This document shows, one piece after another, positions 10,760-61,564 of a stretch of 64,000 nucleotides of DNA; positions within the stretch are counted from its first letter, which is position 1, and each line of letters starts with the position of its first letter. The notes beneath the pieces were generated by a model. The model was not told the origin of the DNA and searched no databases. It saw nothing but the letters and a program-made list of their open reading frames with translations. This DNA is from Amphiura filiformis (lineage: Eukaryota), in NCBI RefSeq assembly GCF_039555335.1, contig NC_092646.1, positions 36,795,911 to 36,859,910 of the forward strand, written 5' to 3'. A program made the position numbers and the translations under genes.

Positions 10760-12849
10760 GTAAGTGTAACCAATCTTTTTCATATTCCAATTTCAAATAA
10801 TGTGTATGATGTATTTGCAAAGACAAACACTTTTTCTATCACTTTATTACTTTCTTTTAAATATGTATCCGTTATTCTAACAAAAATAAAATTGCATTAT
10901 TATTACTGGGATCAAAAGTACTTTTGCGTTATTGTATAAATTTTACTCTTTTTTTAGTTAGCTGAATTAGTCAATGTCGTTTACTTTCGAACCCATAGCA
11001 TACCAACTTTTTGGTGCAAATTTAACAAAAACGCTAAAGAGTCTACACTGACCGCTGACTTGCATTCCGAAGTTTTATCATATCTCTCCAAATGACAACA
11101 TTCAAGTTCTAATATACAGCTGATAAAACCATTTCAAGACGCTAAAGACAGCATTGACGTTTCAAATTGTACCTAAAATGCTGATTTTGATACACATAAC
11201 TTAAGCGCCTCTAACCCTATTGAAATTAAGCTGCATTCTCTTCAGTTCTTTGAAACAAATTCTTATCAAATCCATATTTCTCACAGAATTAATATTACTA
11301 TACTATAGGGTCCACAACTTATAAGTTCCCCCAAGATTCTTTTTAAAATAAATCGAAAAATATTTGACGAAATGCAAACGTGTAAAATGGTTTCGGTAGC
11401 CTTATTTGTTTTACACATAATGGTCCAAATTATAGCGCACACGCCATTGCGTTAGGTCACTATGGTTCATTATGTAAACATATACTTCTAGTGCCCGTTT
11501 CTATTCATCGTTATGTAATCTTCTCCCGTGCATTATTTTCGCGAACTACTTCGCGTGCAGGTTTATATAGACCTGCACGCTAAACAATACATTATCTAAA
11601 ACCTGCACGCTAAACAATAGATTTTAGATAATACGTGCACGCTCAAATACTAGAAATACTACTTTCACATTACTATGTAACTATGTTCGATATATATACC
11701 ACCAAAAAAGTACGAATATACATTCTGTGGTGTTAAAATAGTTATAGGGTATGGTATTTTTTCATGCGCACTTTGTAACTCATAGGTTAACTGTTCTATT
11801 TTGCAACTATCATTGCCATAAATTATGATTAATGAACTCAAATAAATCAAACATCAAATGAGAATAATCGAGCTTCTATTAATTAAAAAGGGCTAAAAAC
11901 AGGTGGACCATAATTATACAAGATGACACCATTACAAAATATTCAGCATTTTACAAATGAATTACATGTAGGCCAATATCTAAGATAACATAAACACGCA
12001 CGGGAAACACACACTAGCGTATAATATCATGATCATGCTTTATAATACTGAACACATTGAAAAATTCCACTCTCGTGTGTTTTAACAATATTAGTAGATT
12101 TTAAATTGTAGAACTATAAAGTCCAGTTGATATTGATATATAAGTTTATTCTCTCATCTCCATTCACCGTAGTACTACATGTAGTGGGACGTCAAAATCG
12201 ATTGTTTCCAACTGCTTCAGTGCTCTCTGTGTTCGGAACCACGATATTAAATGATCACAACATAAAGTCAATTGGTTACAAACCATGCGTGAATAAGTTA
12301 CTAAAGTATGACGTATGGCGCAATCGATACCATTGATAGCTAACTTATACAGTGATTCATTTTCTTGACCAGTTACTAGTAAATGCTGCCTGGTCAATGA
12401 CCTGACGGTGTTTTTAACATTTAAGATATTTTACCTAATATTCAAACTAATATAATGAAAACAAATTGCTCGTCGTATGGGAGTTGCGCTTAATGCGATT
12501 CGAAAATTGAGAACAAAATTTCAGGTGACAAGAGAAGTGAAAAATCAGCCGACAGATGTGTTCGACTGATTACATGACTAATTTTGCACGCTCGTCTACT
12601 TCGGAAAATCTGAAAAGCAGTCGCGGGCATCGCATTGCGGGCATTATTCGGTCCGGGGATTCGTGAGTTTCCCACTTCCCTCGACCCCTCCCTACCACCA
12701 TTACCACCACTTCGAAATCATGCGCACGCCACTGATAATGATCAAATCGGTTTAAATGATGATTTAATTGGCAGTAGAGAAACGTTATCTTTTCTGTTTC
12801 CATTTTTCTTATCCTTTTTCTTTTCTCATTTTTTATTTCATTTCACCAG

Positions 12850-13538
12850 CATCATGTTTTGCTTCCGACTCTATGGTTCGCGTGAAACTACTCACCAAAG
12901 ATGACGGCACGAAAATAGAACGTAAACGAATGTATCAACTGAAAGTAGGAGATCACGTGGAAAGCTTTGACCCAGAAACAAACTCGGTGGCATTTTCCGA
13001 AGTGTATTTCATATCTCATGAAGATGAAAGCAGCAACTCCTCTCGCTTGATAAAGTTAGTGTTCGGATTCGAAGATAAGAAAGAGCTATCTCTTCGTCTG
13101 CATTCGAAGCATTTGGTCTACGCGTGCAGTATTAAGGAAAAAGCTGAACCAACTGAAGCACCCATCACTGATTCCTGTCGGTATCCACCGATGAATCCAG
13201 TAACCGCTGAAAGCGTGAAAATCGGCGATATCGTTTGGCTAAGAAATTCTGCCGGTGAATTCTCCCCAAAACCGGTGATCAAAATCGGTGAGTCCTGGAA
13301 TGGTATTCGACATCCAATGACTCTCAACCATTACATTGTTGTAGATGATGTTTTGGCGTCTGTTCATATGTATGATGAAGGGTTATACAGGCAGGTCACA
13401 GCTCCGTTGAGATTTCTGTATGGCATCAGCCCGTCTATTACCGACACTAGCCTTGTTAAGAAGCTGGTCCAAATGTGGGATCATGTTGAAGACAAATTTC
13501 TTGTAAGTGATTTGAGGCACTGGTTTGGATTAAATTGA
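12850..13538 (+). CDS. Copy 1 terminal exon: Hedgehog-type Hint (Hog) autoprocessing domain
   Basis: Acceptor tttcaccag|ca. It encodes (P)SCFASDSMVRVKLLTKDDGTKIERKRMYQLKVGDHV...LVYA...IRHPMTLNHYIVVDDVLASVHMYDEGLYRQVTAPLRFL. These are Hh-C hallmarks: the Cys-Phe start, TxxH-like LHSKHL, VV(N/D)DVLAS(C/V), and an A-P-(F/L)-R-(F)-L start of the sterol-recognition-like tail. The terminal frame differs by 1 nt from copies 2 and 3. Confidence 0.6.
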
Positions 13539-16500
13539 GAAACTTAAACAATATCGGTGGAGTAAAGGTTTCATCAACTGCATGTACATATATCGACTTA
13601 TGCATAAAACATTTATATGTTGGTTTGCCGTAACTGTTAAGAGACCAAAACATTAGGTTCGGGCGTTTCCTTTTTTTTTTCTTTCTTTTTTTTTTTAAAC
13701 CTTTCTCTGTTTTGGTCTTTTTTATTTAGTTTAAACAAAGTTTGAGGAGCAAATGCATACAACACCAATTATAACATGATATCAATGAGGCTACGAAAAT
13801 TTAAATGCTAGCATAAACTGTAGCCACTTATACTTTGATCATACTTTTGCTCGTAATCGGCGGGGCTCATAACATCGTGGATTATTGTATAATAGCGTAC
13901 AAACAGCTTGGCGCACCACCTACGCGAACCGTGCTTTGCGTATTGCATGACTGCAGTGCGCTTTTGTGAATTTAAACAGGCGCAGTAACAAAACCGAATA
14001 ATGTTCGCCTATTACGAGTTGATCATAGTATAGGCACTAAGTAAATGTATGTTTGTTAGACGTAACACCAGCAAGAAACAAAACAATTTGGGTCTGGCAT
14101 TCTTGTTAGTGTTTTTATTTCCTCATTTTTCCGTTTTAGTCTTTTCTATTCAGGTTAAGCAATGTTTGAAGGTCAAGTTTCATTTTACACAAACTTCCTT
14201 TTGATGTAAATTCACGGTCGCTCGAACTATTTTTTCTCCGAAAAATGTAGAACAAAAAGTTTTTACTATAATGATATTTCAAAGTGAATTTTTCCTCACT
14301 AAAATATTTCGTCCTTCACATCGGAGGACTTCTTCAAGTATGATTGATATGGTCGTCTGATCCACTTTCCCAGGAAACTGGTTTCCGGTACTTCTTACTC
14401 TCTTTTCCAGTCTGTAAAGGAGTTTTGGGTTTATCAAACAAACTGGAAATATTTATTTTAATCAACAATCTATTCAACGAAAAAAGTTTTAAGCCTTGTA
14501 AAGTACATAAAATGGAGCCACTTTGAAAATAAACGAATTCGTTAGAAAAAATTATATGTATTTCATTTAGTGGTAAGAACAACGTGCTTACATTAAGCAA
14601 CTTTTATCTTAATACATGAATTAAATTTTGTAAGTGATAAATTCAGCCTAGTCACCTTACTAAAATGATTCTAAAATTGGTGTTAAAAAGATCATATGAA
14701 TCATATTAGCGCAGATGGCGCTTTCACTGCACTAAAATGATTGATATGATCAATTTAATAGGGAGGCTGGCTTAGGTAAATTACTTAGTTATTCTGAAAT
14801 GATAATATATTGTACCAACATAAAAAAGTGAAATTGTACACAGTCATTGAAACTTGATCTTCGTCATCATCGTCCGCTCCTTCCTCTTCTTAGTTCATTT
14901 TTTGTTTGCTTTTCCTTCATTTTTTTCTTCATCATGCTCATTGTCTAGTTCTTAATTATCATCATCGTCTTCTTCTCATTCTTTTCTTTTCGTTTCTTCT
15001 TTGTCACTTCTTCTTCTTCTCCTTGGTTTATGAATATACTGCTATAATTTTAAAACTTGAAGCGCAATTATTATGAAACTTACCTTCAAGTCAATGGTAA
15101 GTACTTAATTGGTTATGATGTTTCTGACAAATTATTGATAAGTGGTGATAAGTTTGACGACAAAATGTACATATCGTGCATCATAATATTGCTAAATATC
15201 GATTAAGTATCTCCAAATTATCGATTAATAATCTACAAAACAAAACCCAAATTAATATATGGTAGTTGAATTTTAGTACGAATTAATGTGTTTTAATTTT
15301 CGTTTTACGACTGCGTACAATATAGTTGCCCACCCATTTCTGAAGATACACCCCTTTGATATCACTGACTTAATCATGTGCAGAGAAAGAAGGGAGATTA
15401 CAATCCTTTAAAATAACAGATACCTGGCCATTTTTTGTGTAAGTTTAGATTTTAATTTTAGAATGATTCCGTTTTTACATAATTTTAATTTAAAGTGGCA
15501 TAAAGCTAAATTTAATAATTGAATTTTTCTCAAAATCAACTGATATTACCAAACTGATTTACGAAAAAATATTGCTTTCGGGGAACCTGGTTGTGTTGGC
15601 GAAAAACACCATTTGTGTATTATTGTTCTTAATATCTGATATAATGCCAACGAAAACAGAATTTATCCAGATGATCTGATGGGAGAATCATCAAAATTTA
15701 GTTTTGCGTAATCTTGGTATTTCAACAGTCTTTGGGAATGTCAAAGTAGGATCCGTCAGAACAAAGTTCCTTAACTATAATATATTTGCACATCGCCTGA
15801 TGACTTTTGAATGTATTGAGTACAAAAAACTCGTGCTTCACAACGTTCGAGCTATGACAGTTATGGTGTATAATATACTGTGCCCTTGTTATCAGATGTA
15901 TGCTCATATTTTTCCTATGACCAGAGTGAATTGTAGGCCTGAAAAAGGTTTCCTTTGAGGGGTATGAACAATAGTAGTATTGATGCTATGCGACATATGA
16001 AGGAGAGATATGAAGACGAGATTCAAGGGCGACATATGCAGGCAAGATAACAAGATACGAAGGCGAGATGCAAGGACGAAATAACACCTATAAAACTTTA
16101 CAGTTCCCCAGATTTCGCAAAAAGCCTCATATGCGACTCGGGGGTCTTCAAAAATTATTGTAGAAATCCCCTTTGTTTTGCCAATTTTATCTATTTAAAC
16201 CTCCCCTCATGGTACATAATTTCGTCCTCGTATCATACCGCTCTCTTATCTTGCCCGAATATCTCGCATGTTGCCCTCGCATCTTATATCTCGCATTCGA
16301 ATCTCGCACATTAAAATGCAGATTTTGACATTTTCAGTGATTTTTAAGCACCTTTTTCAGTCTGTCGGTCAAGAAGTCAGCGTACCCGTAATCCATCCTA
16401 CACGCTACGTTTTCACGACTTTCGCTTTGTACTTAGGTTATAATAAGGTAACGGCGTCCGGGAACGTCGCACAGTAGGCCTAACGTATTTGTGAGTCAAC

Positions 16501-16739
16501 TTGGTGTATCGATTTCCAGCAAACAATTTTACGTTGTTCCAACGTCGTATGAATGTCATCTACGTTGTACATACGTAAACTCGTATCTGTGTTGTGAAAG
16601 CGTTATTTCGGACGTTGATTTTCAGACGTTGATATAACGTCATTATGACGTTGTTTAAACATCAAGTTGTGAACGTATTTATTCAAAAGTCCTTATTACG
16701 TCCGAATGAATTACAGAAAGTTAAGTTCGCATGTGTTTA

Positions 16740-17850
16740 AAGGGCATTATATATTGCTCGGACAACATCATATCATTGGCAAGCTAATATTATGAGGACA
16801 ATGAAAATGACTCCTTTTTTGAGAAAATAAGACGTTTAAAATAGATATTCCGCAAAAACCAACTGTAAGCGGTGAGTTCCTTCGAACGAGACAAATTTGA
16901 CCTAGAAAAAAGTGTGACGTCATGAAATGAAATGTGCCCGCTTTGAGAGAATGGACTGTAAATACTCTCAATGCACAGAACGTATTTTCTTTGTTATCAG
17001 AAAAAGAAAACTCTGAATCAAGTATCACAAATTTAATGGTTTTAAACATATGGATAAAATCAGACCGCTTCATTATTATATATTAGTAAATTGTGATATT
17101 ACAATTCATATGTATATCAACATCATGAGAAATATTTGGACTAAAAAATAAAATAAAAAATATTTTAGAGCAATACCGTATTCACTCGATAGTTAGCACA
17201 TGTGCTTACTATCGAGGGCTTTTGAAAACGTGCAAAAACGAAAAAAAATGAACAGCGCCATCCACAAAAGTGACAAAAGTGTAAAGGGTTTTGAGCAAAT
17301 CATCGATACACATAGCTATATACGAACAATTATACCTACAAATTTGTGTGTTAACTACATTAGCTCAGTTGGTAAAGCGACAGAATTTGAATCATCTTAA
17401 GGGGGTACTACACCCCTGGCCAATTTTATGCCTATTTTTGCATTTTTCTCACAAATTATAGCGTATTGGTGACAAATAAGATATGTATATTACAGGGCAA
17501 GGACTACAACTACTGCACTGAAAATTCAGCAACTCAAGGCAAGTAGTTATTGATTTATTGATCAAATATTGGTTTTCCCTCATTTTTGACTGTAACTCCA
17601 CAACTGTTGTCTGTGCTGAAATAAAATTTCCAGTGCAGTAGTTGTAGTCCTTGCCCTATAATATACATATCTTACTTGTCACCAATGCGCTATAATTCGT
17701 GAGAAAAATGCAAAAATAGGCACAAAATTGGGCAGGGGTGTAGTACCCCCTTAAGAATAGCGAACTGAGCAGGAGTTCGAGGCTCGTTATAAACTTTTCC
17801 GTTGTTTAATTTTTATTTGGGGGTTTGAGCTTTTCTTGATAAATTTAATC
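16740..17850. repeat. Segment present again in inverted orientation at 24070-26040 (large inverted segmental duplication arms)
   Basis: 16740-17160 is the reverse complement of 25640-26040. 17160-17850 minus the MITE is the reverse complement of 24070-24420. Sub-blocks recur at 25120-25270, 33150-33310 and 34255-34470. Confidence 0.6.
17401..17750. mobile_element. piggyBac-like MITE (family C, 350 bp, TIR GGGGGTACTACACCCCTGGCC, TTAA flanks)
   Basis: Flanked by TTAA at 17397-17400 and 17751-17754. Termini are perfect 28-bp inverted repeats. A second copy lies at 41451-41801. The paralogous empty site is at about 24150-24170 (cttaag-aagaccgaactgagc). Confidence 0.65.
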
Positions 17851-17984
17851 TTTTTTTGCTTTGTTTTTACCTAGCTGGGGTTTACACCCCCCAGCTAGGT
17901 ATTGTAATCGTTCGGGTTCTTCCGCTGGCAACAAACCACTGTAATCTTCCCGTTTTCTTCCGCTGGCAACTAAGTGAAATTGCA

Positions 17985-19270
17985 CATGTTTTTGTACTTT
18001 ATGCACCAAACCCTCTATCTTTTTAACCAAATATCCCACAGAGTTGTGCGATATGTCAAACTTTTCCTCTGGTCATAAGGAACAAAAAAGTCAGTGGTCA
18101 CATCTCTGTAGGATCATTGGTTAATGAGATATAGTCACTTTTTTGTACTTTGTGTACTTAACCCTCTATCTTTTTAACCAAATATCCCACAGAGTTGTGC
18201 GATATGTCAAACTTTTCCTCTGGTCATAAGGAACAAAAAGTCAGTGGTCACATCTCTGTAGGATCATTGGTTAATGAGATATAGTCACTTTTTTGTACTT
18301 TATGCACCAAACCCTCTATCTTTTTAACCAAATATCCCACAGAGTCGTGCGATATGTCAAACTTTTCCTCTGGTCATAAAGAACAAAAAGTTAGTGGTCA
18401 CATCTCTGTAGGATCATTGGTTAATGAGATATAGTCACTTTTTTGTACTTTATGCACCAAACCCTCTATCTTTTTAACCAAATATCCCACAGAGTCGTGC
18501 GATATGTCAAACCTTTCCTCTGGTCATAAAGAACAAAAAAGTTCCTGGTCACATCTCTGTAGGATCATTGGTTAATGAGATATAGTCACTTTTTTGTATT
18601 TTATGCACCAAACCCTCTATCTTTTTAACCAAATATCCCACAGAGTCGTGCGATATGTCAAACTTTTCCTCTGGTCATAAAGAACGAAAAAGTCAGTGGT
18701 CACATCTCTGTAGGATCATTGGTTAATGAGATATAGTGACTTTTTGTACTTTGTGTACTTAACCCTCTATCTTTTTAACCAAATATCCCACAGAGTTGTG
18801 CGATATGTCAAACTTTTCCTCTGGTCATAAGGAACAAAAAAGTCAGTGGTCACATCTCTGTAGGATCATTGGTTAATGAGATATAGTCACTTTTTTGTAC
18901 TTTGTGTACTTAACCCTCTATCTTTTTAACCAAATATCCCACAGAGTTGTGCGATATGTCAAACTTTTCCTCTGGTCATAAGGAACAAAAAAAGTCATCT
19001 CTGTAGGATCATTGGTTAATGAGATATAGTCACTTTTTGTACTTTATGCACCAAACCCTCTATCTTTTTAACCAAATATCCCACAGAGTCGTGCGATATG
19101 TCAAACTTTTCCTCTGGTCATAAAGAACAAAAAGTCAGTGCTCACATCTCTGTAGGATCCTTGGTTAATGAGATATAGCACTTTGTGCATTTAACCCTCT
19201 ATCTTGTTAACCAAATATCCCACAGAGTCGTGCGATATCTGATATGTCAAACTTTACCTCTAGTACGTGA
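17985..19270. repeat. Satellite array, ~150-bp unit x ~8.5
   Basis: Unit ...ttttgtactttatgcaccaaaccctctatctttttaaccaaatatcccacagagt[c/t]gtgcgatatgtcaaacttttcctctggtcataa... repeats with about 150-bp period. Confidence 0.85.
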
Positions 19271-19599
19271 AGACGGCCTGATTGGCGCGAGGTTCATATC
19301 GGTACGTATGCACCAAATATGTATCTTGTAAACCTTAATAAGTTTTGCCTTGCCTTGCTTCGTAATCCTGTTTGGGCTGGACAAAAAATTTTTTTCCACT
19401 TTTCCCCAGTTTCCCTATGGTATTTCGTCTTTAAGCTTACTGATATACAGGGATTGAATACGAGTGTCACGGCCCTGGTTAGTGTGCATTCAAATCAGAG
19501 ATCCCTGTTCAAGGCCATCTTACTTAGCCGTCGGAAATGATTGCAAATTACACATTTGTAATCATTTTGACCACAAAATATGATGTGAAAACACAGGTA

Positions 19600-20045
19600 A
19601 GCAATGTGATAAATTTATCTGTACACATTGTCGCACTCTGAGTGACGTATGGTATATTTGCAACCCTGTGGTGGATTTGCGAACAATTTGTCGACATAAT
19701 GATGTTCGCGGAGAAACGGTGGCCCAAAATGCGTTATTTTTGGTAATATGCAGACGAATGGCCAAATTAATAGAAAAATACCTGTGATAAATTTATCTGT
19801 ACAAATTGTCGCACTACGAGTGACATATGGTATATTTGCAACCCTACTGTGGATTTGTGAACAATTTTTCGACATAAATGACCTTCGCGGAAAAACGGTA
19901 GCCCAAAATGGGTTATATTTGGTAATATGCAGACGAATGGTCAAATTAATAAAAACAATACCTGTGATAAATTTATCTGTACAAATTGTCGCACTCCGAG
20001 TGACATATGGTATATTTGCAACCCTACTGTGGATTTGCAATTGAC
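19600..20045. repeat. Tandem repeat, ~178-bp unit x 2.5
   Basis: cctgtgataaatttatctgtacaaattgtcgcact... recurs at about 19605, 19783 and 19962. Confidence 0.8.
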
Positions 20046-20350
20046 CTGGGGAACATATTGGAACATTTTGCACGGGTCAGCTCAAAAGACATCACTAAGT
20101 TCTGGGGCCAAATCTTAGAATTGCGTTATCTGGACATCTGTAAGAGGTACAGGGCGCAAACTCGGTGACAACTCATGACCAGGGGTGAATTATGGAACAT
20201 CTTGCAGGGGTCTGGTCAAAGGTCATCTGGGTCAAATCTTAGAATTGCATTTTCTGGACATCTGTGAGGAGTACAGGACTCAAAACTCGGTGACAACAAA
20301 CCTCATGACAGGGGAACATTTTTGGAACATTTTGCAGGGGTCAGATACCT
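20040..20350. repeat. Tandem repeat, ~115-bp unit x ~2.5
   Basis: Repeated ggaacat[a/t]ttggaacattttgca[c/g]gggtca...atcttagaattgc[ga]tt[at]tctggacatctgt[ag]a. Confidence 0.7.
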
Positions 20351-20379
20351 CCACAATACCAACATGCCCCAGCTAGGTT

Positions 20380-20520
20380 TGTGGTCTATGACCACCATTT
20401 GCCTCTAGTTCATTTGGTTTCTTTATTGTTTCTTATTTGCTTTATTTTGTTTTGTTTTTTCTTTTCTTTTCTTTTTCTTCTTTCTTTTTTGTTCTATTCA
20501 TACTGGGGTCATGGGCTATT
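20380..20520. repeat. Inverted repeat partner of 23925-24070
   Basis: The poly-pyrimidine block ...tttctttattgtttcttatttgctttattttgttttgttttttcttttc...ttctattcatactggggtcatggg is the reverse complement of 23925-24070. Confidence 0.7.
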
Positions 20521-21604
20521 TATTCAACAATGTAATTGGGTATGCCCTCAATGTTAAAATGAGGTGGTCATGGTCCTCTTTGCCATTACACGCTACAGAA
20601 ATTCCATATTTTTCAAAGGCTCTGATGATGGTTCCCTTCTATCAAATGACTATCATTGAAGACTGAGTTCCGCAGTCTATTTCAAAATACTGACTTCGTT
20701 TTACATCAAGAAGGACACAATAACTGCGACTTAAACGTGATATGGACATGCTTTTTAACCGCAAAGAAATCGTTTGCATTTTATAATTTTAACCTTATCC
20801 ATTATACTTTTATGATTTTGTGCAATACGAAAAATAAAAAACAAAGAGCGTGTTTATAGTGAGCCAGATTATGCGGTATTTAGCTGGACTGCCACGCAGT
20901 CTATATTTGTTTATGTTTGACTAACCATTGCAAATCTAGACTACGCGGTAGTTTAGCCAAATAACGGAAAGATTGTCTCACTATAAACACGCTCATTGTG
21001 TAACATGTAAAACCCCGCTCCGATTCAATTGTGCCTGTTACATTGAGCGTGTTTATAGTGAGCCAGATTATCCGGTATTTAGCGTATAAGTACATCTTAT
21101 ACGGTATTGGTCGCCACTATAAACAGACCAATAGCGCTATTTGCCGCACATATTATACGGAACTGATATCCTTCGATATCGATGGATATTGCAGTATATT
21201 TATTCCGTATACGGCCACTATAAACAGACAGGGATTAACGATACCGTTATTCAAGGAAGTGGAGCAGGGTTATATAACTCTCCGAGCTCAAATTTGTCAC
21301 TGTAATAACATATCACCTATAAAATATGGTACGGTACTGTGGCAAAAATGTTAAAAAATAGGCCGGTATCGTTTCGACGGCAAACTGTTTGAAATTGGCA
21401 CTATATCCGTGTCTCCCACATTGCATTGCGGTGACCTCGAACACGCTGAGTTCAACCACCTCGGATTCAGAATAGCGCTATTGGTTGCCACTATAAACAG
21501 CCGAGATAACGGATAAGTCACATTCCATCCTAATCCCATATGCGCATAAGGATACCGTATAAATACCGTACACCACTATAAACACGCTCATAGTGTGCTT
21601 TATT

Positions 21605-21870
21605 GAATCAGGGACCTTGTATAGAGGCCCTGCATGAAATTATCGATTGGCTCCAGACAAAGGATTTGAACCGGTGTCCTTCACCGTAGTTATAGCGGAG
21701 TGCAGTCCATTCAATCAAATGTTGTCATCAACCTATTTGATCGTAATGCAGGGTTATATGTGTGAGACGAACTGTCGCGGTAGATTGCTATCATGCTTTT
21801 ATTGAATGCATTTGAGTAGTCCGCCATATTTACGGGATGATACGTCACATGCAAGGCCTCTATTCAGTAT
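21605..21870. mobile_element. MITE-like element with TIR cttgtatagaggccctgcatg
   Basis: Inverted termini at 21611-21635 and 21848-21867. It contains a tRNA-T-loop-like ggttcaaatcc, but no cloverleaf can be drawn. Confidence 0.4.
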
Positions 21871-23670
21871 CAAAGTTACGTAATGTTACTATGTCAACGG
21901 GATCACGCTCTTGAGTAATGAACCACGATCGAAACGATCACCACACAAAGTATATGGCACTCGAAGGCATACCAAAAAAGCGTGATCCGGTAACCAAGAG
22001 AATTACGTAACCACTTCGATGCTGAATATGGAGGGACTGTAAACGGCTTCCACCCATTGTACCATGCGAGTTGCTGGTTTACAAATTATCCTCAGTTGAG
22101 CAAGCATACGTTGATCAATAGACCCTGGTACGAATCCAAGCACAGTTACAACACAGCGCGTGTCTTGTCTTGTACATTGCGAAATGAGCCTACATGTTTG
22201 CCTATAATGACAGACTCTAGAAATGCCAACATAAATCTTCAAAGAACATCATCTTAAGAATTATTTCAGTATCGAAATCAGAAGGAATACCAAGCGTACG
22301 GTGTACACATTCCAGAAAAAAATATAATTTTGTTTGTTCTAGCATTCTGTATCTCCACAAAATTATCACATTTTGTCTTCAAAATCCTATGTAAATGATT
22401 TTCCATGCTACACAGAAATTGTGTTCGACAAAAGATAGACATTTTACACAATTTTGCATATCTTAAAAAAGATATTGGAATATTTTGATGTTTTTTTAAA
22501 TATTTAGTATAGGGCAACATGAGTAAATAATAAAATTCAAACATAGCGCACTCGGCGCAACTCGCATACAATCGAAGGTCGAAAAGATAATCTGATAACA
22601 ATATCTTGACAATAGCTATCAATAATCTGTTTCCAGTCCCTGATTGAATGGCCAAAAATACGCCAACAATGACATAACAGCAAGCCAAAGACGAATTCTG
22701 ATCACCAAGTGGGTTGGAGAAGTATGGAAGGACATTACAATGAAGGGAACCAGGCATAGATCTACTGTACATATTTCGAGGAGCATAACAAAGACCAATT
22801 GGTGTCGTATAACCTTTGACATGCATGCATTCTTTTGTCGAGAGTGACATGGTCTTTCAATTCGTGCCGAGTGTCCTTGTCAGACTTGACTATGCATCAG
22901 TGGTCATGAAATTAACCTCTGCCCCAGTAATCCCAAGCAATTGTCTGAAATTGCTCCTCGGAGATGTATCATACTCCTCAAATGATAGTCATATAACGAC
23001 CAAAAGATAAATGACCGACTATCATTGAGGACTAAGTTCCGCAGTCTAGGTGAAGCTGAGTCCTATCAAAATCAAACAGGAAACAATTTCGTGCCTAATT
23101 TTAACACCGGGATTTTTTACAAATGTATATCCAAGAACTATGTTTTTATTCAACATTTTTTATTCAACATTACTGAAAAAAAAAAGTTTTTTATATGACC
23201 GAGAATTTTCAAAGCAAAAACGCGTATTTCTGAATTGTGCCGAGTTCAACATGTATCGACCGACTTTTAGCACGACTATGCGTAACAATTCGCAAGGGAA
23301 ATGTTACGTGTAATCCGATTATCACTGTCAGCTGGATCACGCTTTTGAGTTCTGCACCACGATCGATATGATCGCAACACAAAGTCTATGGCATTCAACG
23401 CCATTTATTGTTCTATTGTGTCCCAGCAGCTATGTCTGCCATTGAGGTGTAGCATGGGTGTAGGAATGCATGAAATTGGATGTAGCGGTGAAATTTTAAA
23501 GTTAATCCAATTATTTGCCAGCGAAGTGTTACGTGTAATCCGATTATCACTTTGTCTATTAGAACGAAATGAGCGTATTTATTTGCCTTCAAAAAGGTGC
23601 GTGATCCAGTTACCAAGGAGTTATGTAACCACTCCACTTTTAATCCAACTGATCTTTAATTGTTCCTTTG

Positions 23671-23712
<42 letters not shown>

Positions 23713-23924
23713 AAAGTCCACAAAAAAACCTTCAAGAATTGTCAAATGTAGGCCTATATTCGAAGTTAAAAAAAAAGACCTGTAAAACAAACATGGCAGA
23801 GAAAAAAAAAATCTAAATAGTGAAATACTGAACAGATTTGAACTTAATCGAGTCTCGAAGTCCGGCGTTTTCCAAACTGAGCTAATGGGGTTCAGACATA
23901 CATTTGCAGGTTGAATTGTTCGTA

Positions 23925-24070
23925 TATAGGTATGTTTTGAATATATAACCCATGAACCCAGTATGAATAGAACAAAAAAGAAAGAAAAGAGAAAAAGAAA
24001 AGAAAAAACAAAACAAAATAAAGCAAATAAAAAACAATAAAGAAACAAAATGAAAAACAAAGATTAAATT
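23925..24070. repeat. Inverted repeat partner of 20380-20520
   Basis: Reverse-complement identity read directly. Confidence 0.7.
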
Positions 24071-24409
24071 TATCAAGAAAAGCTCAAACCCCAAAATAAA
24101 AATAAAGCAACGGAAAATTTTATAACGAGCCTCGAACTCCTGCTCAGTTCGGTCTTCTTAAGATGATTCAAAGTCTGTCGCTTTACCAACTGAGCTAATG
24201 AAGTTAACACACAAATGTGTAGGTTTAATTGTTCGTATATAGCTATGTGTATCGATGATTTGCTCAAAACCCTTTACACTTTTGTCACTTTTGTGGATGG
24301 CGCTGTTCATTTTTTTTTCGTTTTTGCACGTTTTCAAAAGCCCTCGATAGTAAGCACATGTGCTAACTATCGAGTGAATACGGTATGTTACCGCAAGATC
24401 TTAAAATTT

Positions 24410-25650
24410 GAGCGTGATTAATATTGTATTTATTATGCAAATAAACAATTTCAATGGGCCGGGAGCTAACCTTTTGTTGTCCATTGAAGGTCGCGCATTT
24501 ATGCATGAACGAACATGAAAAGAGCTGGCTTATGTGTTATGTACTACTCGTGAACATAGGGGAACGGCGGGTTATCCCGAACGCGGGGTAATCCCGAACG
24601 GTGCTGTCAAGAGGTTGGGGGTTCTTCTCAAAAATATTTAAAACGAAATTAGCCACTTTTGACTTTTGATCATCGGTTTTCTGATGCGTAGGAAATATTG
24701 TAGTGATAAAGAGGGGTGGATTGTACAATTAATAAGACAGGACGATTGCTTAAAGATATGACGTGACCATATCGTGTTGATATTAATAGCTTATCAGTAC
24801 AAGTAAGAACAAGTAATACATGAGTGGTGGGGTAACGGCCGTCAAGAGTGTGATGTATTTTATCTGCGTTGATCTACAGAGCTATATGTATCATGAGCTG
24901 GATATGAACTAATCTTTCACCGAGGTTCTAGAAATAAATTAAAAGTTATAATCAAAAATTCAATTCTTTTTAAAACTCCAAATTGATTCTTCAGTGAGCT
25001 TTCCAGTACCGTTCGGGATTACCTCCCAGATCGCGGGGTAATCCCGAACGACGCCATTTTCTTTGTTTCATCATATCTTCTAGCTAATTAATTAAGGTTT
25101 AGTTAATGAGAACGTGCTTATAATTAAAGTATTACCCACTCTTGATATTGGTATGGTTTATTCTACCTTACGTAATAAGGTAACGTCACATAGTTACGTA
25201 ATTCCAACGTTATTTTAACGTACCTGGACATGATTTTAAAAAGCCCTTTTGAAACATTCGGTAATGACGTCGTGGTATTTACGTCTTAAGGGCATATCTA
25301 TTGCAAAAACAAGTTTAACTCCATTCGAGGAGAATAATTATTACATTTCAAGTTGACACTCGTTGCAATTTTTTTATGCATATTTCTCCTGAAAAAAGAG
25401 AAATCGTGTTGATAAAGTGGGGAGAGTGGGGTAATCCCGAACACCTTTTCATATTATTATTAAGAGTGGGATTACCAGTAGTTTCCCTATGTTCACGATA
25501 ACACATGAGCCTAGAGCTCTTTTCATGTTCGTTCATGTATAAATGCGCGGCCTTCAATGGTAAAGAAAAGGTTAGCTACCGGCCGATTGAAATTGTTTAT
25601 TTGCATAATAAATATAATATTGATCACGCTTAAATTGTAAGCTCAAAATA
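24410..25650. mobile_element. Non-autonomous TIR element (~1.2 kb) with ~200-bp terminal inverted repeats and repeated ggggtaatcccgaacg motifs, inserted in the inverted copy of the 16.7-17.9 kb segment
   Basis: 24400-24610 is the reverse complement of 25430-25650. The gcggggtaatcccgaacg motif occurs at 24585, 25010, 25030 and 25425. The element is absent from the paralogous arm at 17160. Confidence 0.5.
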
Positions 25651-26383
25651 TTCTTTTATTTTTTAATCCAAATATTTCTCATGACGTTGATATAAATTAC
25701 ATATGTATTGTGATATCACAATTTACTAATATATAATAAAGAAGCGGCTGATTTTATCCATATGTTTAAAAACCATTAAATTTGTAATACGTTGAGAGTG
25801 CATTGAAAGTGTTTACAGTCCATTTTCTCAAAGTGGGCACATTTCATTTCATGACGTCAAACTTTTTTGTAGGTCAAATCTGTCTCGTTCGAAGGAACTC
25901 ACCGCTTACAGTTGGTTTTTGCGGAATATCAATTTTAAACGTCTTAGTTTCACAAAAAAGGAGTCATTTTCATTGTCCTCATAATATTAGCTTGCCAATT
26001 ATATGATGTTGTCCGAGGAATATACAGCCTGTCTCAAAAAAAATTGTGCAAGTAAAAAGCGCCCTCTTTGGCAATTAGAAAATATCGTTGTGACATAATG
26101 CTTACATCAACGTCAAGGGCGTAGTCTTACAACAAAAACACTATAAAATGTTCTCTTAAGTTTTTTTTAAAGACAGGAGGGATTTGGCTGTGTAATCCTG
26201 GCAAAGTGGTAGTGTCATTTTTGTTTTGGGATTTGATACCAGTGTGGAAAACTGTAAATGCTGATTAATAACAATCGCACAGTCAACTAAAAATGTTAAA
26301 CTGTATTTTCAATTGGAATACATATAACGTCTTATTTCTAGCCAATCTATTTTTGTTACTCGCTCTTTTCTTTTCTACGGTAG

Positions 26384-26542
26384 CGTTCTGGGGCGCATGG
26401 GAAGGATGGGGTTTATGTAGTGTAGCGTGTGGTGGAGGGAAACAGTACAGATACAGGAAATGCTACTACGACGGAGAATATCTCTCTGGATATTGCCCAG
26501 GATCACACTACGAGACGATAACATGCAACACAGAGGATTGCT
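26384..26542 (+). CDS. Copy 2 TSR-A exon (intact, 159 nt, phase 1-1)
   Basis: Acceptor ctacggtag|cg. It encodes (A)FWGAWEGWGLCSVACGGGKQYRYRKCYYDGEYLSGYCPGSHYETITCNTEDC, ending at the donor t|gtaagt. Confidence 0.55.
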
Positions 26543-27212: not shown

Positions 27213-27347
27213 GTGGGTCATGGGGATCGTGGTCCGAGTGCAAATGTTCTGCTGGAATTGGTCACCAAATCAGATCCAGAACATGCCGTTACCCTTCCCA
27301 TGGTTACTATTACACCACACGTACAACGGAACGCAAATGCGATTGTC
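27213..27347 (+). CDS. Copy 2 TSR-B exon (135 nt, phase 1-1)
   Basis: Acceptor cttatag|gt. It encodes (C)GSWGSWSECKCSAGIGHQIRSRTCRYPSHGYYYTTRTTERKCDC, ending at the donor c|gtaagt. Confidence 0.5.
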
Positions 27348-29195: not shown

Positions 29196-29848
29196 CATCA
29201 TGTTTTGCTTCCGACTCTATGGTTCGCGTGAAAATACTCACCAACGATGATACGAAAATAGAACGTAAACGAATGGATCAACTGAAAGTAGGAGATAACG
29301 TGGAAAGCTTTGATCCGGAAACCAACTCGGTAGCATTTTCCAAAGTGTACTTCATATCTCATGAAGATGATACCAGCAACTCCTTTCGCTTGATAAAGTT
29401 AGTGTTCGGTTTCGAGGATGAGAAAGAGCTATCTCTTCGTCTGCATTCGAATCATTTGGTGTACGCGTGCAGTGTTGAGGAGAAAGCTGAACCAAATGTA
29501 GCACCCATCACTGATTCCTGTCGTTATCCACCGATGAATCCAGTAACCGCTGAAAGCGTGCAAATCGGCGATATCGTGTGGCTGAGAAATTCTGCCGGTG
29601 AATTCACGCCAAAACCAGTGATCGACATCGGTGAGTCGTGGAATGGTATTCGACATCCAATGACTCTTAACCATTACATTGTTGTAGATGATGTGTTGGT
29701 GTCTGTTCATATGTATGACGAAGGGCTATACAGGCAGGTCACGGCTCCGTTGAGATTTCTGTATGGCATCAGCTCGTCTATCACCGACACAAGCCTTGTT
29801 AAGAAGCTGGTCCAAATGTGGGATCATGTTGAGGGAAATTTCTTGTAA
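29196..29848 (+). CDS. Copy 2 Hint-domain exon
   Basis: Acceptor ttttcaacag|ca. It encodes (P)SCFASDSMVRVKILTNDDTKIERKRMDQLKVGDNV...VVDDVLVSVHMYDEGLYRQVTAPLRFL...VEGNFL, ending at stop TAA at 29846-29848. Confidence 0.6.
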
Positions 29849-30616: not shown

Positions 30617-31189
30617 ATGCGTGATAAGTTTGACGACAAAATGTACGAATTAATGTGTTTTAATTTTATTGCATATATCGTTTTATGACTGCGTACAATT
30701 TATTGCCCACCCATTTCTCAAGATACACCCCTTTGATATCACTGACTTTATCATGTGCAGAGAAAGTAGGGAGATTACGATCCTTTAAAATAGGAGATAC
30801 CTGGCCATTTTTTGTATAAGTTTAGAATGATTCCGTTTTTACATAATTTTAATTTAAAGTGGAATAAAGCTAAATTTAAGAATTGAACTTTTCTCAAAAT
30901 CAACTGATATTACCAAACTGATGTAATAAAAATATTGCTTTCTGGGAACCTGGTTGTGTTGGCAAAAAACACCATTAAGTGTTGTGCAGTATTGTTCTTA
31001 ATATCTGATATTATGCCAACGAAACAGAATTTATCCAGATGATCTGATGGGAGAATCATCAAAATTTAGTTTTGCGTAATCTTGGTTTTTCAACAGTCTT
31101 TGTGAATGTAAAGGTTAACCAAATTAGGATCTTAAACATTCGTCAGAACGAAGTTCCTTAACTATAATATATTGTTATAGACATGCTCT

Positions 31190-33155
31190 CAAGAGTGCAA
31201 ACCTGTTTCTGCCATTTTTTCATTCGCGGACCTATTTTTTTCGATAATTATAAAAATGCGATTTTTTTGATGACTCAAATTCATGCATAGGCTTTACACT
31301 TTCATTTAAGCTATAATTCGCTACTCTGTCTGATTATTAGTCCACACAGCAGCCCATAATACCGCAAAAACTTTCCGTATTTTACCGGAACTTAGTAGGG
31401 TTGCACAAATGGTGCATTGGTTTAGTGGTGTGCTCCCTTCAAAGGTAACTGATGTTCTTAAAATCGAATTTTGTTATGTCTTTCTACGAATATAAAATGT
31501 TTTTGAGTAAAACACTCAAAGTTCGAGTGCTCTGCGACATCCACATCAAGAAAATGTCCTGTCAAAGTAACATGGTCAATTCCAAAAATGTGCAAATTTT
31601 CAACATTAGCTAACATTTTGACCATTATGCTTATTTCCCTAGATTTGCATTAAATACCCATTCTCGACATATAGTTTTTGACCGTTTATCTGCTAAAGAC
31701 CGCTTTCAAATAAAAAGAAATTATGTTTAATAATTGCAAGGGTCTGTATATTAATGATTTTGCATTAATCCCCCCCCCCTTTATATAAAAAAAAAAAGAT
31801 TTGGGACGTTTAAAAGACTTGTGCCGATTTCTCACCTTAAGACAATATTGCTCGAGGGCTCGAAATCTTAGTTTTCCTCACAATTTTTGACCGTTTCTTT
31901 AACTTTGAAGGCCTCTGAGAGAATAAACTTAGCGCGACTTGCATTTAAAACGTATTAAATATATTTACTAACATAACAACTATCTATTTAAATCGAAAAA
32001 ACTGCAATTTAATCAAAAGTCAACTTCAATTTTGGCTGAATCTCTCAGGAGCCCGATTTTACACCTAGGCCCTTCGAAGGGCGCACACCACTAAATAATC
32101 GCCCCATTGAAATACGTGTGAAAACACCGGTTTTCTTTTCTCGTTTTTATGCCTTTCGGCGCTTTCTGAGATATTTAATGATAACCAGTCGATTGCAAAT
32201 CGATGAAAGTTTAACATATGTTTCAATGTTTGGGTAGTCTTCCGTCTCGTTTTCCCGGTAGGAGCCACTGAACAGCGCCCTCACTGTTTTTGACATGCTC
32301 TTAAGAGTGCAAACCTGTTTCTGCCATTTTTTCATTCGCGGACCTATTTTTTTCGATAATTATAAAAATGCGAATTTTTTGATGACTCAAATTCATGCAT
32401 AGGCTTTACACTTTCATTTAAGCTATAAATTCGCTACTCTGTCTGATTATTAGTCCAAACAGCAGCCCATAATACCGCATAAACTTTCCGTATTTTACCG
32501 GAACTTAGTAGGGTTGCACAAATGGTGCATTGGTTTAGTGGTGTGCTCCCTTCAAAGGTAACTGATGTTCTTAAAATCGAATTTTGTTATATCTTTCTAC
32601 GAATATAAAATGTTTTTGAGTAAAACACTCAAAGTTCGAGTGCTCTGCGACATCCACATCAAGAAAATGTCCTGTCAAAGTAACATGGTCAATTCCAAAA
32701 ATGTGCAAATTTTTAACATTAGCTAACATTTTGACCATTATGCTTATTTCCCTAGATTTGCATTAAAACCCATTCTCGACATATAGTTTTTGACCGTTTA
32801 TCTGCTAAAGACCGCGTTCAAATGAAAAGAAATTATGTTTAATAATTGCAAGGGTCTGTATATTAATGATTTTGCATTAATAACTCCCCCCCTTATATAA
32901 AAAATAAGATTTGGGACGTTTAAAGACTTGTACCGATTTCTCACCTTAAGACAATATTGCTCGAGGGCTCGAAATCTTAGTTTTCCTCACAATTTTTGAC
33001 AGTTTCTTTAACTTTGAAGGCCTCTGAGAGAATAAACTTAGACTTGCATCTAAAACGTATTAAATATATTTACTAACATTAACTATCTATTTAAATCGAA
33101 AAAACTGCAATTTAATCAAAAGTCAACTTCAATTTTGGCTGAATCTCTCCGGAGC
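31190..33155. repeat. Tandem duplication of a ~0.9-1.1-kb unit (2 copies; second lacks ~230 bp tail)
   Basis: 31190-32290 and 32290-33155 are more than 95% identical (atgctct[c/t]aagagtgcaaacctgtttctgccatttttt...). Confidence 0.85.
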
Positions 33156-33655
33156 CCGATTTTTAAGTCAGCGTACCCGTAACCCAATTCACGACGTTCG
33201 CTAACGTTGTACTTAGGTTGTGATAAGGTAACGTCGCAACGCTAATATAAAGTACCGGACATAATTTTAAAAAGCCTTTTGGAAAAATTCGGTAATGACG
33301 TGGTCATCCCATTGAATATTAGGCCCATAATATGTTTCGTTGGGCGATATATGTTGGAGATGAGAGATACGACGACGAGATACTAAGACACGATGCGACG
33401 AAGGTTAACACAAAGGCATGATGGATGAGATACGATGGCGAGATGCGAGGGCGAGATACGAAATAATACCAATAAAATTTTAAATGCAACCTGGGAGTCT
33501 TTGATTTTTTTTGGCAACCCATCACTATTTTCACAAACATCACTCAACGTTTGTCTATTGGGCGCATTGGTCATTATTACAAATCCACCCATCGCAGTAT
33601 ACCAAAATCGCTGAAAAGGTACCCCCAAAACCGTGACACATATTCAAGTACATAC

Positions 33656-35412: not shown

Positions 35413-36103
35413 ATGGCGCTTACGATACTGTGCAGTTTTCTTTTATTGAGTGCATTTTTATACGCTCCAACTGTCTACGGATTCCAAGATCTAAACGACA
35501 ATGACGCGAGGTATATTGAAGGATTGTACGCAACCTTTCGTAGCCATTTTATTGCATTATGTTCGAGTAACAACCTCAACTTGAATATGACTTCGGTTCA
35601 ATTTGGTGTTTTAACGATGGGCAGAATATCAAACGCAAATGATTATCGTCCATTGCCTCTTCTTTTTTCCAGCACCCTCCCGTGCGCAAATACTTGCCCT
35701 GTGACAGCTCCAAACTACCATGCTGCTGTTCCATTACGCTTAGGTTCATCAAATTACAGGACCCATTGTGAAATACAGTTGATAGACGCCTTCGATCGGT
35801 TGAGAGGTTCTTATACAGGTTTAACAGATGTCTACATACTAACATACTTCAGTCCGTGCAATGATTGTGCTGAGAGACTGCGACGTCTGGCACAACGATG
35901 GCCTCAAATTAACTTCCACATTGGTTACATGACGGAATATCGTAGACCAATGCAGCAACCAAGCGGGTCCGGACAGCAATGGGTGCCAACCCTGACTAGA
36001 ACTAGAAATATTCTTCGGAATTCGCAGAACATCTTCTTTGGAAATGTAAGAGGTTTCTGTCAGCCGAGAGGAAAACGGAATGCAAATGATTGTGACCTTC
36101 CTG
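35413..36103 (+). CDS. Copy 3 exon 1: signal peptide + deaminase-fold domain + RGKR site; GTAAGA donor
   Basis: N-terminus MALTILCSFLLLSAFLYA... The zinc motif is HCE...(29 aa)...PCNDCAERL. RGKR lies at 36067-36078. The donor is ctg|gtaaga at 36104. Overall identity to copy 1 is about 65% with indels. Confidence 0.65.
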
Positions 36104-41059: not shown

Positions 41060-41218
41060 AGTTCTGGGGCACATGGGAAGCATGGGGTAAATGCGGTGTA
41101 GTGTGTGGTGGTGGGTACCAGTACAGATATAGGAAATGCTACCACAACGGAGATGTATCTATAGAACAGTGCCCAGGATTAAACTACCACTTAATGAGAT
41201 GCAACACACATAATTGCT
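41060..41218 (+). CDS. Copy 3 TSR-A exon (159 nt)
   Basis: Acceptor ctacggtag|ag. It encodes (E)FWGTWEAWGKCGVVCGGGYQYRYRKCYHNGDVSIEQCPGLNYHLMRCNTHNC, ending at the donor t|gtaagt. Confidence 0.55.
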
Positions 41219-41357: not shown

Positions 41358-41450
41358 TATTATAAATCATTTTCTCACGACGCGCGAATTATGGCGGCTT
41401 TTGCAACATAATACAACTCCTCATTTTCTGGAAACTAGAAATTGCCTTAA

Positions 41451-42761: not shown

Positions 42762-42929
42762 GTGGGTCATGGGGATCGTGGGGCGAGTGTTCCACTGGCT
42801 TCTGTTCTACCCAAGGACTGGCTTACCAATGCAGAAACAGAAGGTGTAGGAGTAGCCTGTGGCATTCAACTCAATACCTTGTAGACCTATATTCATACAG
42901 GATTGAAGATTGCCGCGACTGTAAATGTC
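42762..42929 (+). CDS. Copy 3 TSR-B exon (168 nt, strongly divergent sequence)
   Basis: Acceptor cttatag|gt. It encodes (C)GSWGSWGECSTGFCSTQGLAYQCRNRRCRSSLWHSTQYLVDLYSYRIEDCRDCKC, ending at the donor c|gtaagc. Confidence 0.45.
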
Positions 42930-48797: not shown

Positions 48798-49456
48798 CAT
48801 CAAGATCGTGTTTTGCTTCAAACTCTATGGTTCGCGTGAAACTACTCACCAACGACGACACAAAAATAGAACGTAAACGAATGGATCAACTGAAAGTAGG
48901 AGATAACGTGGAAAGCTTTGACCCGGAAACCAACTCGGTAGCATTTTCCAAAGTGTACTTCATATCTCATGAAGATGAAACCAGCAACTCCTCTCGCTTG
49001 ATAAAGCTAGTGTTCGGTTTCAAGGATGAGAAACAGCTATCGCTTCGTCTGCATTCGAAGCATTTGGTGTATGCGTGCAGTGTTGAGGAGAAAGCTGAAC
49101 CAAATGTAGCACCCATCACTGATTCCTGTCGTTATCCACCGATGAATCCAGTAACCGCTGAAAGCGTGCAAATCGGCGATATCGTGTGGCTGAGAAATTC
49201 TGCCGGTGAATTCACGCCAAAACCGGTGATCGACATCGGTGAGTCCTGGAATGGTATTCGACATCCAATGACTCTTAACCATTACATTGTTGTAGATGAT
49301 GTTTTGGCGTCTGTTCATATGTATGATGAAGGGCTATACAGGCAGGTCACGGCTCTTTTGAGGTTTCTGTATAGCATCAGTCCGTCTATTACCGACACGA
49401 GCCTTGTTAAGAAGCTGGTCCAAATGTGGGATCATGTTGAAGAAAAATTCTTGTAA
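48798..49456 (+). CDS. Copy 3 Hint-domain exon (with in-frame 6-nt insertion before the catalytic Cys)
   Basis: Acceptor acatcag|ca. It encodes (P)SRSCFASNSMVRVKLLTNDDTKIERKRMDQLKVGDNV...VVDDVLASVHMYDEGLYRQVTALLRFL...EEKFL, ending at stop TAA at 49454-49456. Confidence 0.6.
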
Positions 49457-60849: not shown

Positions 60850-61564
60850 ATGGCGCTTACAATACTATGCAGCTTTCTTTTAGGGAGTACATGTTTATAT
60901 GCTTCAACTGTCTACGGATACCAAGACCTGAACGATAATGATGCGATGTACATTGAAAGATTGTACGAAAACTTCCAGGCCCAATTTAATGCAACACGTA
61001 CGCGTCGCAACCTAAATGCGGTACAGTTTGGTGTTTTAACGATGGGCAGAATAGAAAACAGCAATAATTTTCGTCCATTGCCTCTTACATTTTCCAGCAC
61101 CCTCCCATGCGAGACTACATGCCGTGCGCACGGACTAATAGACCAACCTCCAGCTCCAAACTACCACGCTGCTGTTCCAACACGCTTAGGGTCACATACT
61201 AGGACCCATAGCGAGGTCCAGTTAATAGACGCATTTAATCGGTTAATATATGCTTATGAAGATTTAACAGATGTCTACATACTAACATATTTCAGTCCAT
61301 GCCCTGAATGTGCTGAGAGACTGCGAAGTCTGGCGCAACAATTTAATGATAGACGTCTAATTAACTTCCACATTGGTTACATGCGGGAATATGAGGAGCC
61401 AACGGCTCAATTGGACGGGTCCTGGTTACGAATGCCTACCATAGATAGAACTGAAGAGATTCTTCGGAATTTGCAGAACATCTTCTTTGGGAATATAAGA
61501 GGTTTCTGTCAGCCGAGGCAAAAGCGAAATGCAAATGATTGGGCCATCATTTGTGACCTTCCTG
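60850..61564 (+). CDS. Copy 4 exon 1: signal peptide + deaminase-fold domain + RQKR site; GTAAGA donor; the remaining exons lie beyond the window
   Basis: N-terminus MALTILCSFLLGSTCLYA... The zinc motif is HSE...(29 aa)...PCPECAERL. RQKR lies at 61516-61527. The donor is ctg|gtaaga at 61565. There is no canonical TATA at -62 in this copy. Confidence 0.65.

Follow-up and report, generated by a model that had tools for sequence, protein, structure and literature searches.

The 64,000-nucleotide stretch of an Amphiura filiformis chromosome that we analysed (hereafter the window) carries an exon at 12850..13538 that encodes a Hog domain, that is, a Hedgehog-type Hint fold followed by a short tail resembling Hedgehog proteins' sterol-recognition region (SRR). 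Our best explanation, to which we assign a probability of about 0.7, is that this exon is the last of four in a tandemly repeated gene, and that the gene encodes a precursor with, in order, a signal peptide, an AID/APOBEC-like cytidine deaminase, two thrombospondin type-1 repeats (TSR-A and TSR-B) and a Hog domain with a 44-residue tail. All exons of the gene copies described below lie on the forward (+) strand.

The exon at 12850 encodes a Hedgehog-type Hint module

The exon starts at 12850, directly after an acceptor AG at 12848-12849, and its open reading frame (ORF) runs to a TGA at 13536-13538. The translation begins S-C-F-A-S, the codon of the preceding Pro being split by the intron, and is 100% identical to RefSeq XP_072019146.1. 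Ser(-1) is encoded at 12852-12854 and the Cys that begins the Hint module (Cys1) at 12855-12857. These are followed by FISHED, which holds an invariant His (13008-13025), HSKH at the position of the Hedgehog TxxH motif (13101-13112), ASVHM at the position of SCYA (13356-13370), and APLRF, which corresponds to SRR helix 1 (13401-13415). All of the strings quoted in a preliminary description of the exon, namely P-S-C-F (with the split Pro codon), HLVYAC, IRHPMTLNHYIVVDDVLASVH and YRQVTAPLRFL, were found.

Pfam analysis assigned the exon to Hint (PF01079) with an E-value of 1.8e-18 and 67 bits (cut-off 29.7); across the three window copies and RefSeq XP_072019147.1 the scores ranged from 67 to 70 bits. 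Profile-profile comparison with canonical Hog domains using hhalign gave a probability of 98% and an E-value of 1e-13 over 183 columns that included both SRR helices. The fold evidence for the exon comes from an AlphaFold model of the copy 3 Hog domain, which is 91% identical to it (predicted local distance difference test score, pLDDT, 78; predicted template-modelling score, pTM, 0.72). The best Foldseek matches of this model in the PDB were Drosophila Hedgehog-C (1AT0) and its D46H mutant (6TYY), with an E-value of 5e-10 and a template-modelling (TM) score of 0.85, followed by inteins and bacterial intein-like (BIL) domains. Taken together, the profile matches and the predicted structure confirm that the exon encodes a Hedgehog-type Hint module and not a chance resemblance. 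The preliminary description had proposed such a module starting at Cys-Phe, and the sensitive searches (Pfam and hhalign) both recovered it.

Two related identities were considered and rejected. Hedgehog proper does not apply, as the only families that Pfam detected in XP_072019147.1 and in the conceptual proteins of copies 2 and 3 were Hint, TSP_1-type and APOBEC-type, with no Hedge domain (HH_signal). An intein does not apply either, as a stop codon lies 44 residues past the Hint core and there is no C-extein.

The Hog exon is preceded by deaminase and thrombospondin exons

Three exons precede the Hog exon in copy 1. Exon 1 (5408..6149) encodes a signal peptide and an AID/APOBEC-like deaminase (HSE...SPCTEC; fold predicted from the copy 4 model), carries RQKR near its end and terminates in a phase 1 donor, CCT G|GTAAG. 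Exon 2 (9661..9818) encodes TSR-A, and exon 3 (10619..10759) encodes the divergent TSR-B and ends TGT C|GTAAGT, again in phase 1. The preliminary description had joined the Hint module to thrombospondin repeats, in line with these two exons on the same strand; it contained neither the upstream deaminase cargo nor the two frameshifts of copy 1 described below.

Two further Hog exons begin at 29196 and 48798, each about 90% identical to the exon at 12850. Copy 2 comprises a TSR-A exon (26384..26542), a TSR-B exon (27213..27347) and a Hog exon (29196..29848) that ends FL-TAA. Copy 3 is intact and comprises a signal peptide and deaminase exon (35413..36103; HCE...SPCNDC, RGKR), a TSR-A exon (41060..41218), a TSR-B exon (42762..42929) and a Hog exon (48798..49456) with a 6-nt insertion that gives P-S-R-S-C-F. 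Copy 4 is represented by exon 1 (60850..61564; signal peptide and deaminase), the remainder of the gene lying past the window end. RefSeq labels copy 3 and one further copy 'warthog protein 4-like'.

All introns are in phase 1 with GTAAG donors, and joining the four copy 3 exons produced an open frame of 558 codons. The most decisive evidence for one gene is XP_072019147.1, a paralogous 500-residue 'uncharacterized protein' from the same chromosome that belongs to the 90% cluster of XP_072019146.1. It shares 96% identity with copy 1, and its deaminase, TSR-A, TSR-B and Hint segments meet exactly where the junctions had been predicted. The same exon order with compatible phases was identified on a second, brittle-star-like contig, where the deaminase is 33% and the Hint module 77% identical. 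No other conserved block was detected in intron 1.

We also examined the cargo encoded by these exons. The three ORFs at 5408, 35413 and 60850, none of which is annotated as a protein in its own right in the database searched, each display a hydrophobic start resembling a signal peptide, H-x-E and P-C-x-x-C motifs and a GTAAG donor at the end; the HxE and PCxxC zinc motifs are invariant. Pfam analysis of the deaminase exons revealed matches to APOBEC_N, SNAD4 and NAD1 around the cut-offs, close relatives scoring above them; for APOBEC_N the values were 23.5-26.4 bits (cut-off 25), and 33-35 bits in those relatives. When the copy 4 exon 1 domain was modelled with AlphaFold (pLDDT 83), its top 50 PDB hits were all APOBEC3, AID, APOBEC1 or dCMP deaminases. 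These motif, profile and model matches show that exon 1 encodes a predicted AID/APOBEC-like deaminase. A single-sequence search with the copy 4 deaminase returned no matches; the relevant RefSeq protein sat inside the 90% cluster of P0001. The TSR exons scored 25-47 bits with TSP_1 (cut-off 21.6), repeat B being strongly divergent.

A conserved multibasic R-x-K-R motif (RQKR or RGKR) was observed just before the end of the deaminase exon at 6089-6100 in copy 1, 36067-36078 in copy 3 and 61516-61527 in copy 4, and also in four relatives (P0015, P0017, P0018 and P0020). It is a putative furin-type site that could, more speculatively, later free the deaminase from the TSR stalk.

Cys-Phe at the predicted cleavage junction is conserved across the family

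The active site of Hedgehog is formed by C1, D46, T69, H72 and C143 (PMC12054796, PMC9163320). We assessed residue conservation in a family alignment of 15 sequences. Copies 1-3, and all relatives whose sequence covers the junction, retain Cys1-Phe2; one of these relatives (L006, a low-coverage contig) needs a 1-nt homopolymer correction. Invariant positions included H86 (the TxxH His), H55, C91, C108, RHP, SVH and several tail residues, and an insert of about 19 residues with two invariant Cys follows the TxxH strand. The residue at -1 is Ser in copies 1-3 and Ser, Ala or Gly among the relatives; the preliminary description was right that it is not the Gly of Hedgehog. It had also noted a Ser-Arg insertion at the copy 3 junction and suggested that this could tune processing. 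The insertion is present, 6 nt long and in frame, but it only lengthens the linker because the residue adjoining the Cys is still Ser.

Both sterol-recognition helices have counterparts in the tail

The tail comprises 44 residues after S-V-H and ends in FL-stop in copies 2 and 3, in a fourth Amphiura copy and in almost all other relatives. The preliminary description gave a figure of about 45 residues; the tail of the flagged copy is 11 residues longer than the 44, solely through a 1-nt insertion near 13490-13500 that moves the frame past the ancestral TAA. A further exon, reached through the donor-like CTT|GTAAGT at 13503, was rejected: copies 2 and 3 share a TAA at this place with almost all relatives, the copy 1 readthrough reflects the 1-nt insertion only, and a relative, L003, is colinear into the 3' untranslated region. 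L003 (Logan SRR27871391) is a 900-nt spliced transcript-like contig in which TSR-B runs into Hint without an intron and the ORF stops at the same place.

Profile-profile and multiple alignments both matched the tail to the two SRR helices of canonical Hog domains, and helices were predicted at residues 175-191, 193-197 and 199-215 of the copy 3 model. A conserved AP.RFLY matches SRR helix 1, and the HWY hinge and helix 2 correspond to [ST]-W-V-x-K-[KR]-L-V of the remoter paralogues, the hinge Trp being kept in P0011-P0014. Y178, R179, T182, R186, Y189, K202, V205, W208 and E212 are invariant. The tail had been described beforehand as short and SRR-like, which these alignments support, and its shortness had been taken as a doubt on sterol transfer. 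This doubt loses its force, as both SRR helices are kept with a loop of 8-9 residues between them, and an 8-residue tether is enough for cholesterolysis by human SHH (PMC7906309); a short tail alone is therefore no argument against adduct transfer.

The Hog exon is under purifying selection and two copies are frameshifted or incomplete

Comparison between copies by the Nei-Gojobori method gave ratios of nonsynonymous to synonymous substitution (dN/dS) of 0.18-0.22 for the Hog exon, 0.34-0.69 for the deaminase exon, 0.37-1.25 for the TSR-A exon and 0.52-1.05 for the TSR-B exon. These sequence-based ratios show that the Hog exon is under purifying selection and that the cargo is fast-evolving; fast evolution has likewise been reported for lineage-expanded AID/APOBEC-like deaminases (PMC5889660).

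The TSR-A exon of copy 1 carries a 1-nt deletion at about 9775 (TGCC-GGGA, compared with TGCCCAGGA in copies 2 and 3) that leads to a premature stop after GKCRDQITR. XP_072019146.1, the RefSeq model of copy 1, begins at an out-of-frame ATG inside TSR-A (window 9692-9823) and has no signal peptide; its first 27 or so residues (MRRSVWRWGPIQNKEM...) are an artefact, wrong-frame TSR-A produced by the deletion. Copy 1 is probably decaying, judging from these lesions, and skipping of the symmetric phase 1 TSR-A exon would keep its frame. No deaminase exon was detected in the region upstream of copy 2 (13539-26383), and exon 1 of this copy may have been removed by a rearrangement or an insertion. The same region contains inverted segments (16750-17401 versus 24157-26024, 95-98% identical) and a 150-bp tandem array of 8.4 copies at 17989-19238.

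Alternative explanations for the gene and for its processing

Several observations weigh against a single processed deaminase-TSR-TSR-Hog precursor, and they are considered here together with the explanations that compete with it. The fold matches of the deaminase model were weak (E-values of 4.5e-4 to 1e-2, TM scores of 0.35-0.46). XP_072019147.1 starts at an internal Met without a signal peptide and, as a RefSeq model, may be partly ab initio. In addition, copy 2 consists of TSR-TSR-Hint with no deaminase exon, and on related contigs the Hint exon stands behind other modules (three CUB domains and four TSRs, or TSRs only). These arrangements would fit a deaminase ORF and a TSR-TSR-Hint gene that are merely neighbours, as would contig L011, where a deaminase exon and its donor are followed by no TSR or Hint within 10 kb downstream, although we grade L011 as uninformative. 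We consider two neighbouring genes improbable. Conservation of the deaminase ORF stops exactly at the GTAAG donor in at least eight genes, with unrelated read-through tails beyond it; in two species this donor and the TSR-A acceptor are compatible in phase; TSR-A lacks its own start codon and signal peptide; XP_072019147.1 joins the deaminase to TSR-TSR-Hint; and single ORFs elsewhere encode a related deaminase together with Hog. A closer rival, to which we give slightly less than an even chance, is that the flagged copy is a mere pseudogene with nothing functional at 12850-13538. Copy 1 has two frameshifts, the TSR-A deletion that leads to a stop and the 1-nt insertion that removes the ancestral Hog stop, and its RefSeq model starts out of frame without a signal peptide. 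Against this, its 228-codon Hog ORF is intact with a dN/dS of about 0.2 relative to copies 2 and 3, its exons are all phase 1-1 so that TSR-A skipping would restore the frame, and errors in the assembly could account for the indels. The family-level reading would hold even with a dead copy 1, copy 3 and XP_072019147.1 being intact.

For the four-exon precursor, the proposed sequence of events follows Hedgehog. The precursor would enter the endoplasmic reticulum (ER), where Cys1 would attack the carbonyl of Ser(-1) in an N-to-S acyl shift helped by the invariant TxxH His, and a nucleophile would then resolve the thioester and free deaminase-TSR-TSR from the Hog domain. Self-cleavage at Ser|Cys in the ER with release of deaminase-TSR-TSR is probable. 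The active site differs from that of Hedgehog. The preliminary description had looked to a Thr/His/Asp triad, from which only the His stands as invariant: at the TxxH Thr position the three window copies have His and relatives have H, T, D or Q, and no conserved Asp occupies the Asp46 position, which has an invariant His at or beside it. Five sequence alignments disagreed on the Asp46 equivalent, with H55 in two (ungapped, anchored on [YF]SEV) and the non-conserved D57 or E58 in three gapped ones. The SCYA Cys143 position is Val (S-V-H) in all 15 sequences. As C143A and C143D abolish Hedgehog autoprocessing (PMC12054796), the brittle-star family cannot use the Hedgehog route unchanged. A catalytically dead Hint that serves in folding, ER quality control or binding, leaving the protein uncut, would account for this Val and for the variable TxxH Thr, and some deaminase-Hog paralogues without Cys1 (SSGFPS) suggest that non-cleaving versions exist. 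Yet every member with an available junction retains Cys1-Phe2 and the TxxH His, the Hog dN/dS is about 0.2, and inteins accept other residues at the Thr position. Non-animal eukaryotes likewise have Ser, Thr or Asp instead of the motif-J Cys in their Hog domains (PMC2362128), and we regard a dead Hint as unlikely. Cleavage by hydrolysis or by transfer to a non-sterol acceptor, with the Hog domain as a release or maturation device and the tail serving membrane association or folding, is a real but still minority possibility. It would fit the missing Hedgehog residues (no conserved Asp46, Val for Cys143, no Gly at -1, HWY hinge lost in the Amphiura copies); D303A Hedgehog cleaves with dithiothreitol and cannot cholesteroylate (PMC9163320), and the adduct of nematode Hog proteins with divergent tails is likewise unknown (PMC2362128). 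However, the Hint fold alone suffices for thioester formation and cleavage (1AT0 fragment; PMC9163320), and the 44-residue tail is nevertheless conserved and aligns to the SRR; moreover, Drosophila D46H Hedgehog, with a His at the general-base position, retains cholesterolysis with broadened sterol tolerance (PMC9163320, PMC12054796). Transfer of a sterol-like membrane lipid is our tentative choice, itself short of an even chance, and is rated slightly above hydrolysis because the tail is conserved, an invariant His lies at or next to Asp46 and D46H Hedgehog keeps this activity.

Related proteins fuse the deaminase directly to Hog

When the three window deaminase exons were used as queries in a full HMMER search, 25 relatives were identified, several of which are single ORFs of about 430 residues with a signal peptide, a deaminase of the same family and a canonical Hog domain (Pfam Hint E-value of 1e-53). 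In at least 10 unannotated proteins, one ORF holds both a deaminase of this family and a Hog domain of canonical type (G|CFP, FLDR, T/SxxH, SCYA, HWY). Searching with a profile of the deaminase alignment revealed more fusions, all among ENA/Logan proteins, with none from NCBI or UniRef. In both the brittle-star and the direct-fusion groups the deaminase ends in a common basic-Cys motif, [KR]R..C..C, and in the direct fusions the cleavage site lies a few residues past it. The simplest reading of these sequences is that the brittle-star lineage carries two phase 1 TSR exons between deaminase and Hog.

The Hog exon was also found with other cargo. On a brittle-star-like contig (L004, ENA ERZ25070167, 2172-10636), three CUB-domain ORFs and four TSR exons precede a Hint exon on the same strand, and one type of Hog exon thus seems to have been combined with different extracellular modules. 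Several deaminase-Hog paralogues (P0037, P0051 and P0055) carry Gly where the nucleophilic Cys would be (SSGFPS), a replacement that points to non-cleaving versions. Another deaminase relative, P0021 (394 residues), is fused to a galectin domain. Pfam detected no domains in the neighbouring ORFs on contig L007.

Relation to known Hog and deaminase systems

The brittle-star domain shares with the Hedgehog Hog domain (1AT0, 6TYY) the Hint fold, the Cys-Phe start, the TxxH His, the IVVD..LAS strand, the AP.R[FL]L helix-loop-helix and the C-terminal position in a secreted precursor. It differs in having no Hedge domain, Ser, Ala or Gly instead of the invariant Gly at -1, a variable Thr69, Val for Cys143 (SVH rather than SCY), no conserved Asp46 with a His at or beside this position (resembling the engineered D46H), the two-Cys insert of about 19 residues, an SRR loop of 8-9 residues and, in Amphiura, loss of HWY. 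Nematode Warthog, Groundhog and Quahog proteins, cnidarian Hog proteins, Lophohog and choanoflagellate Hoglet (PMC2362128, PMC9695228) are likewise built from an N-terminal cargo, secreted and specific to the lineage, and a Hog domain at the C-terminus with a divergent adduct-recognition tail. In contrast to these, the brittle-star cargo consists of recognisable domains (deaminase and TSRs) and not of a novel Cys-rich module, and a deuterostome is the host. Wart, Ground or Lopho domains were not seen in the brittle-star proteins, dedicated models for them not having been used. Hog-domain proteins besides Hedgehog are known from nematodes, cnidarians, lophotrochozoans and protists, with no deuterostome genes reported in PMC2362128 or PMC9695228; the present genes would constitute a tandemly expanded deuterostome family of non-Hedgehog Hog proteins.

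Direct deaminase-Hog proteins (P0023, P0024, P0030, P0052-P0054 and others) have the same deaminase family (profile E-values of 1e-8 to 1e-5), signal peptide, basic-Cys motif and C-terminal Hog, but their canonical Hog follows the deaminase immediately in a single ORF without TSRs and is 21-25% identical to the brittle-star Hog. The secreted SNADs resemble the brittle-star proteins in their signal peptide, AID/APOBEC-type zinc deaminase core, lineage-specific tandem expansion and fast evolution, and SNAD4 and NAD1 were among the best Pfam matches. They differ in being reported from vertebrates and sponges and in having no TSR or Hint; as the deaminase scores lie near or below the family cut-offs, we place the brittle-star deaminases in a separate clade. 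Bacterial polymorphic toxins (PMC3239186, PMC3482391) also combine a HINT autoprotease and a deaminase effector in one secreted polypeptide, but there the HINT is N-terminal and releases what follows, whereas the brittle-star Hog is C-terminal and would release what precedes, as in Hedgehog. A bacterial pretoxin-HINT (PT-HINT) was rejected on this reversed domain order and on the spliceosomal introns of the gene; PT-HINT gave a weak score on one relative only.

A survey of AID/APOBEC-like deaminases reported secreted forms only in vertebrates, sponges and slime moulds, none of them fused to Hint and with no established mode of action or delivery (PMC5889660), and the combination of a Hog domain with a deaminase is not described in the literature that we searched. 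Hog-mediated release or membrane anchoring would provide a concrete delivery mechanism for secreted deaminases, and would link Hedgehog autoprocessing with mutagenic deaminases in immunity. No activity is known for the N-terminal part that most Hog proteins release; in the present family this part would be a recognisable predicted enzyme on a stalk of adhesion repeats, with a testable function. The family also represents a natural active-site experiment: Asp46 and Cys143 are central in current Hedgehog work, and cleavage by this domain would bear directly on the branched-intermediate mechanism. A broader and rather doubtful proposal is that brittle stars and the hosts of the direct fusions employ Hedgehog chemistry in producing an AID/APOBEC-like nucleic-acid mutator that is secreted and anchored by a lipid, with the Hog exon as a portable cleave-and-lipidate cassette shuffled in phase 1 onto immune-type cargo (deaminase, TSR, CUB). 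If this were true, a His-based active site without Cys143 would mean that Hog chemistry can proceed without the branched-thioester route.

Other features of the window

Intron 3 of copy 3 contains a long terminal repeat (LTR) retrotransposon at 43145-47581 with reverse transcriptase, RNase H and integrase (minus-strand ORFs at 43814-45574 and 45669-46376); on its flanks are direct repeats of 160 bp (43145-43304 and 47422-47581) with 98% identity. Because of this element the intron measures 5.9 kb instead of about 2 kb. Two copies of a self-complementary, foldback-like element of about 360 bp, 94% identical, were identified at 17395-17756 and, within intron 2 of copy 3, at 41445-41807. Three further features are probably repeats or transposons: a large inverted repeat (2023-2854 versus 3385-4208, 91.5% identical), a pair of direct repeats (31173-32060 versus 32285-33163, 96.5% identical) and a 377-bp tandem duplication at 52840-53579.

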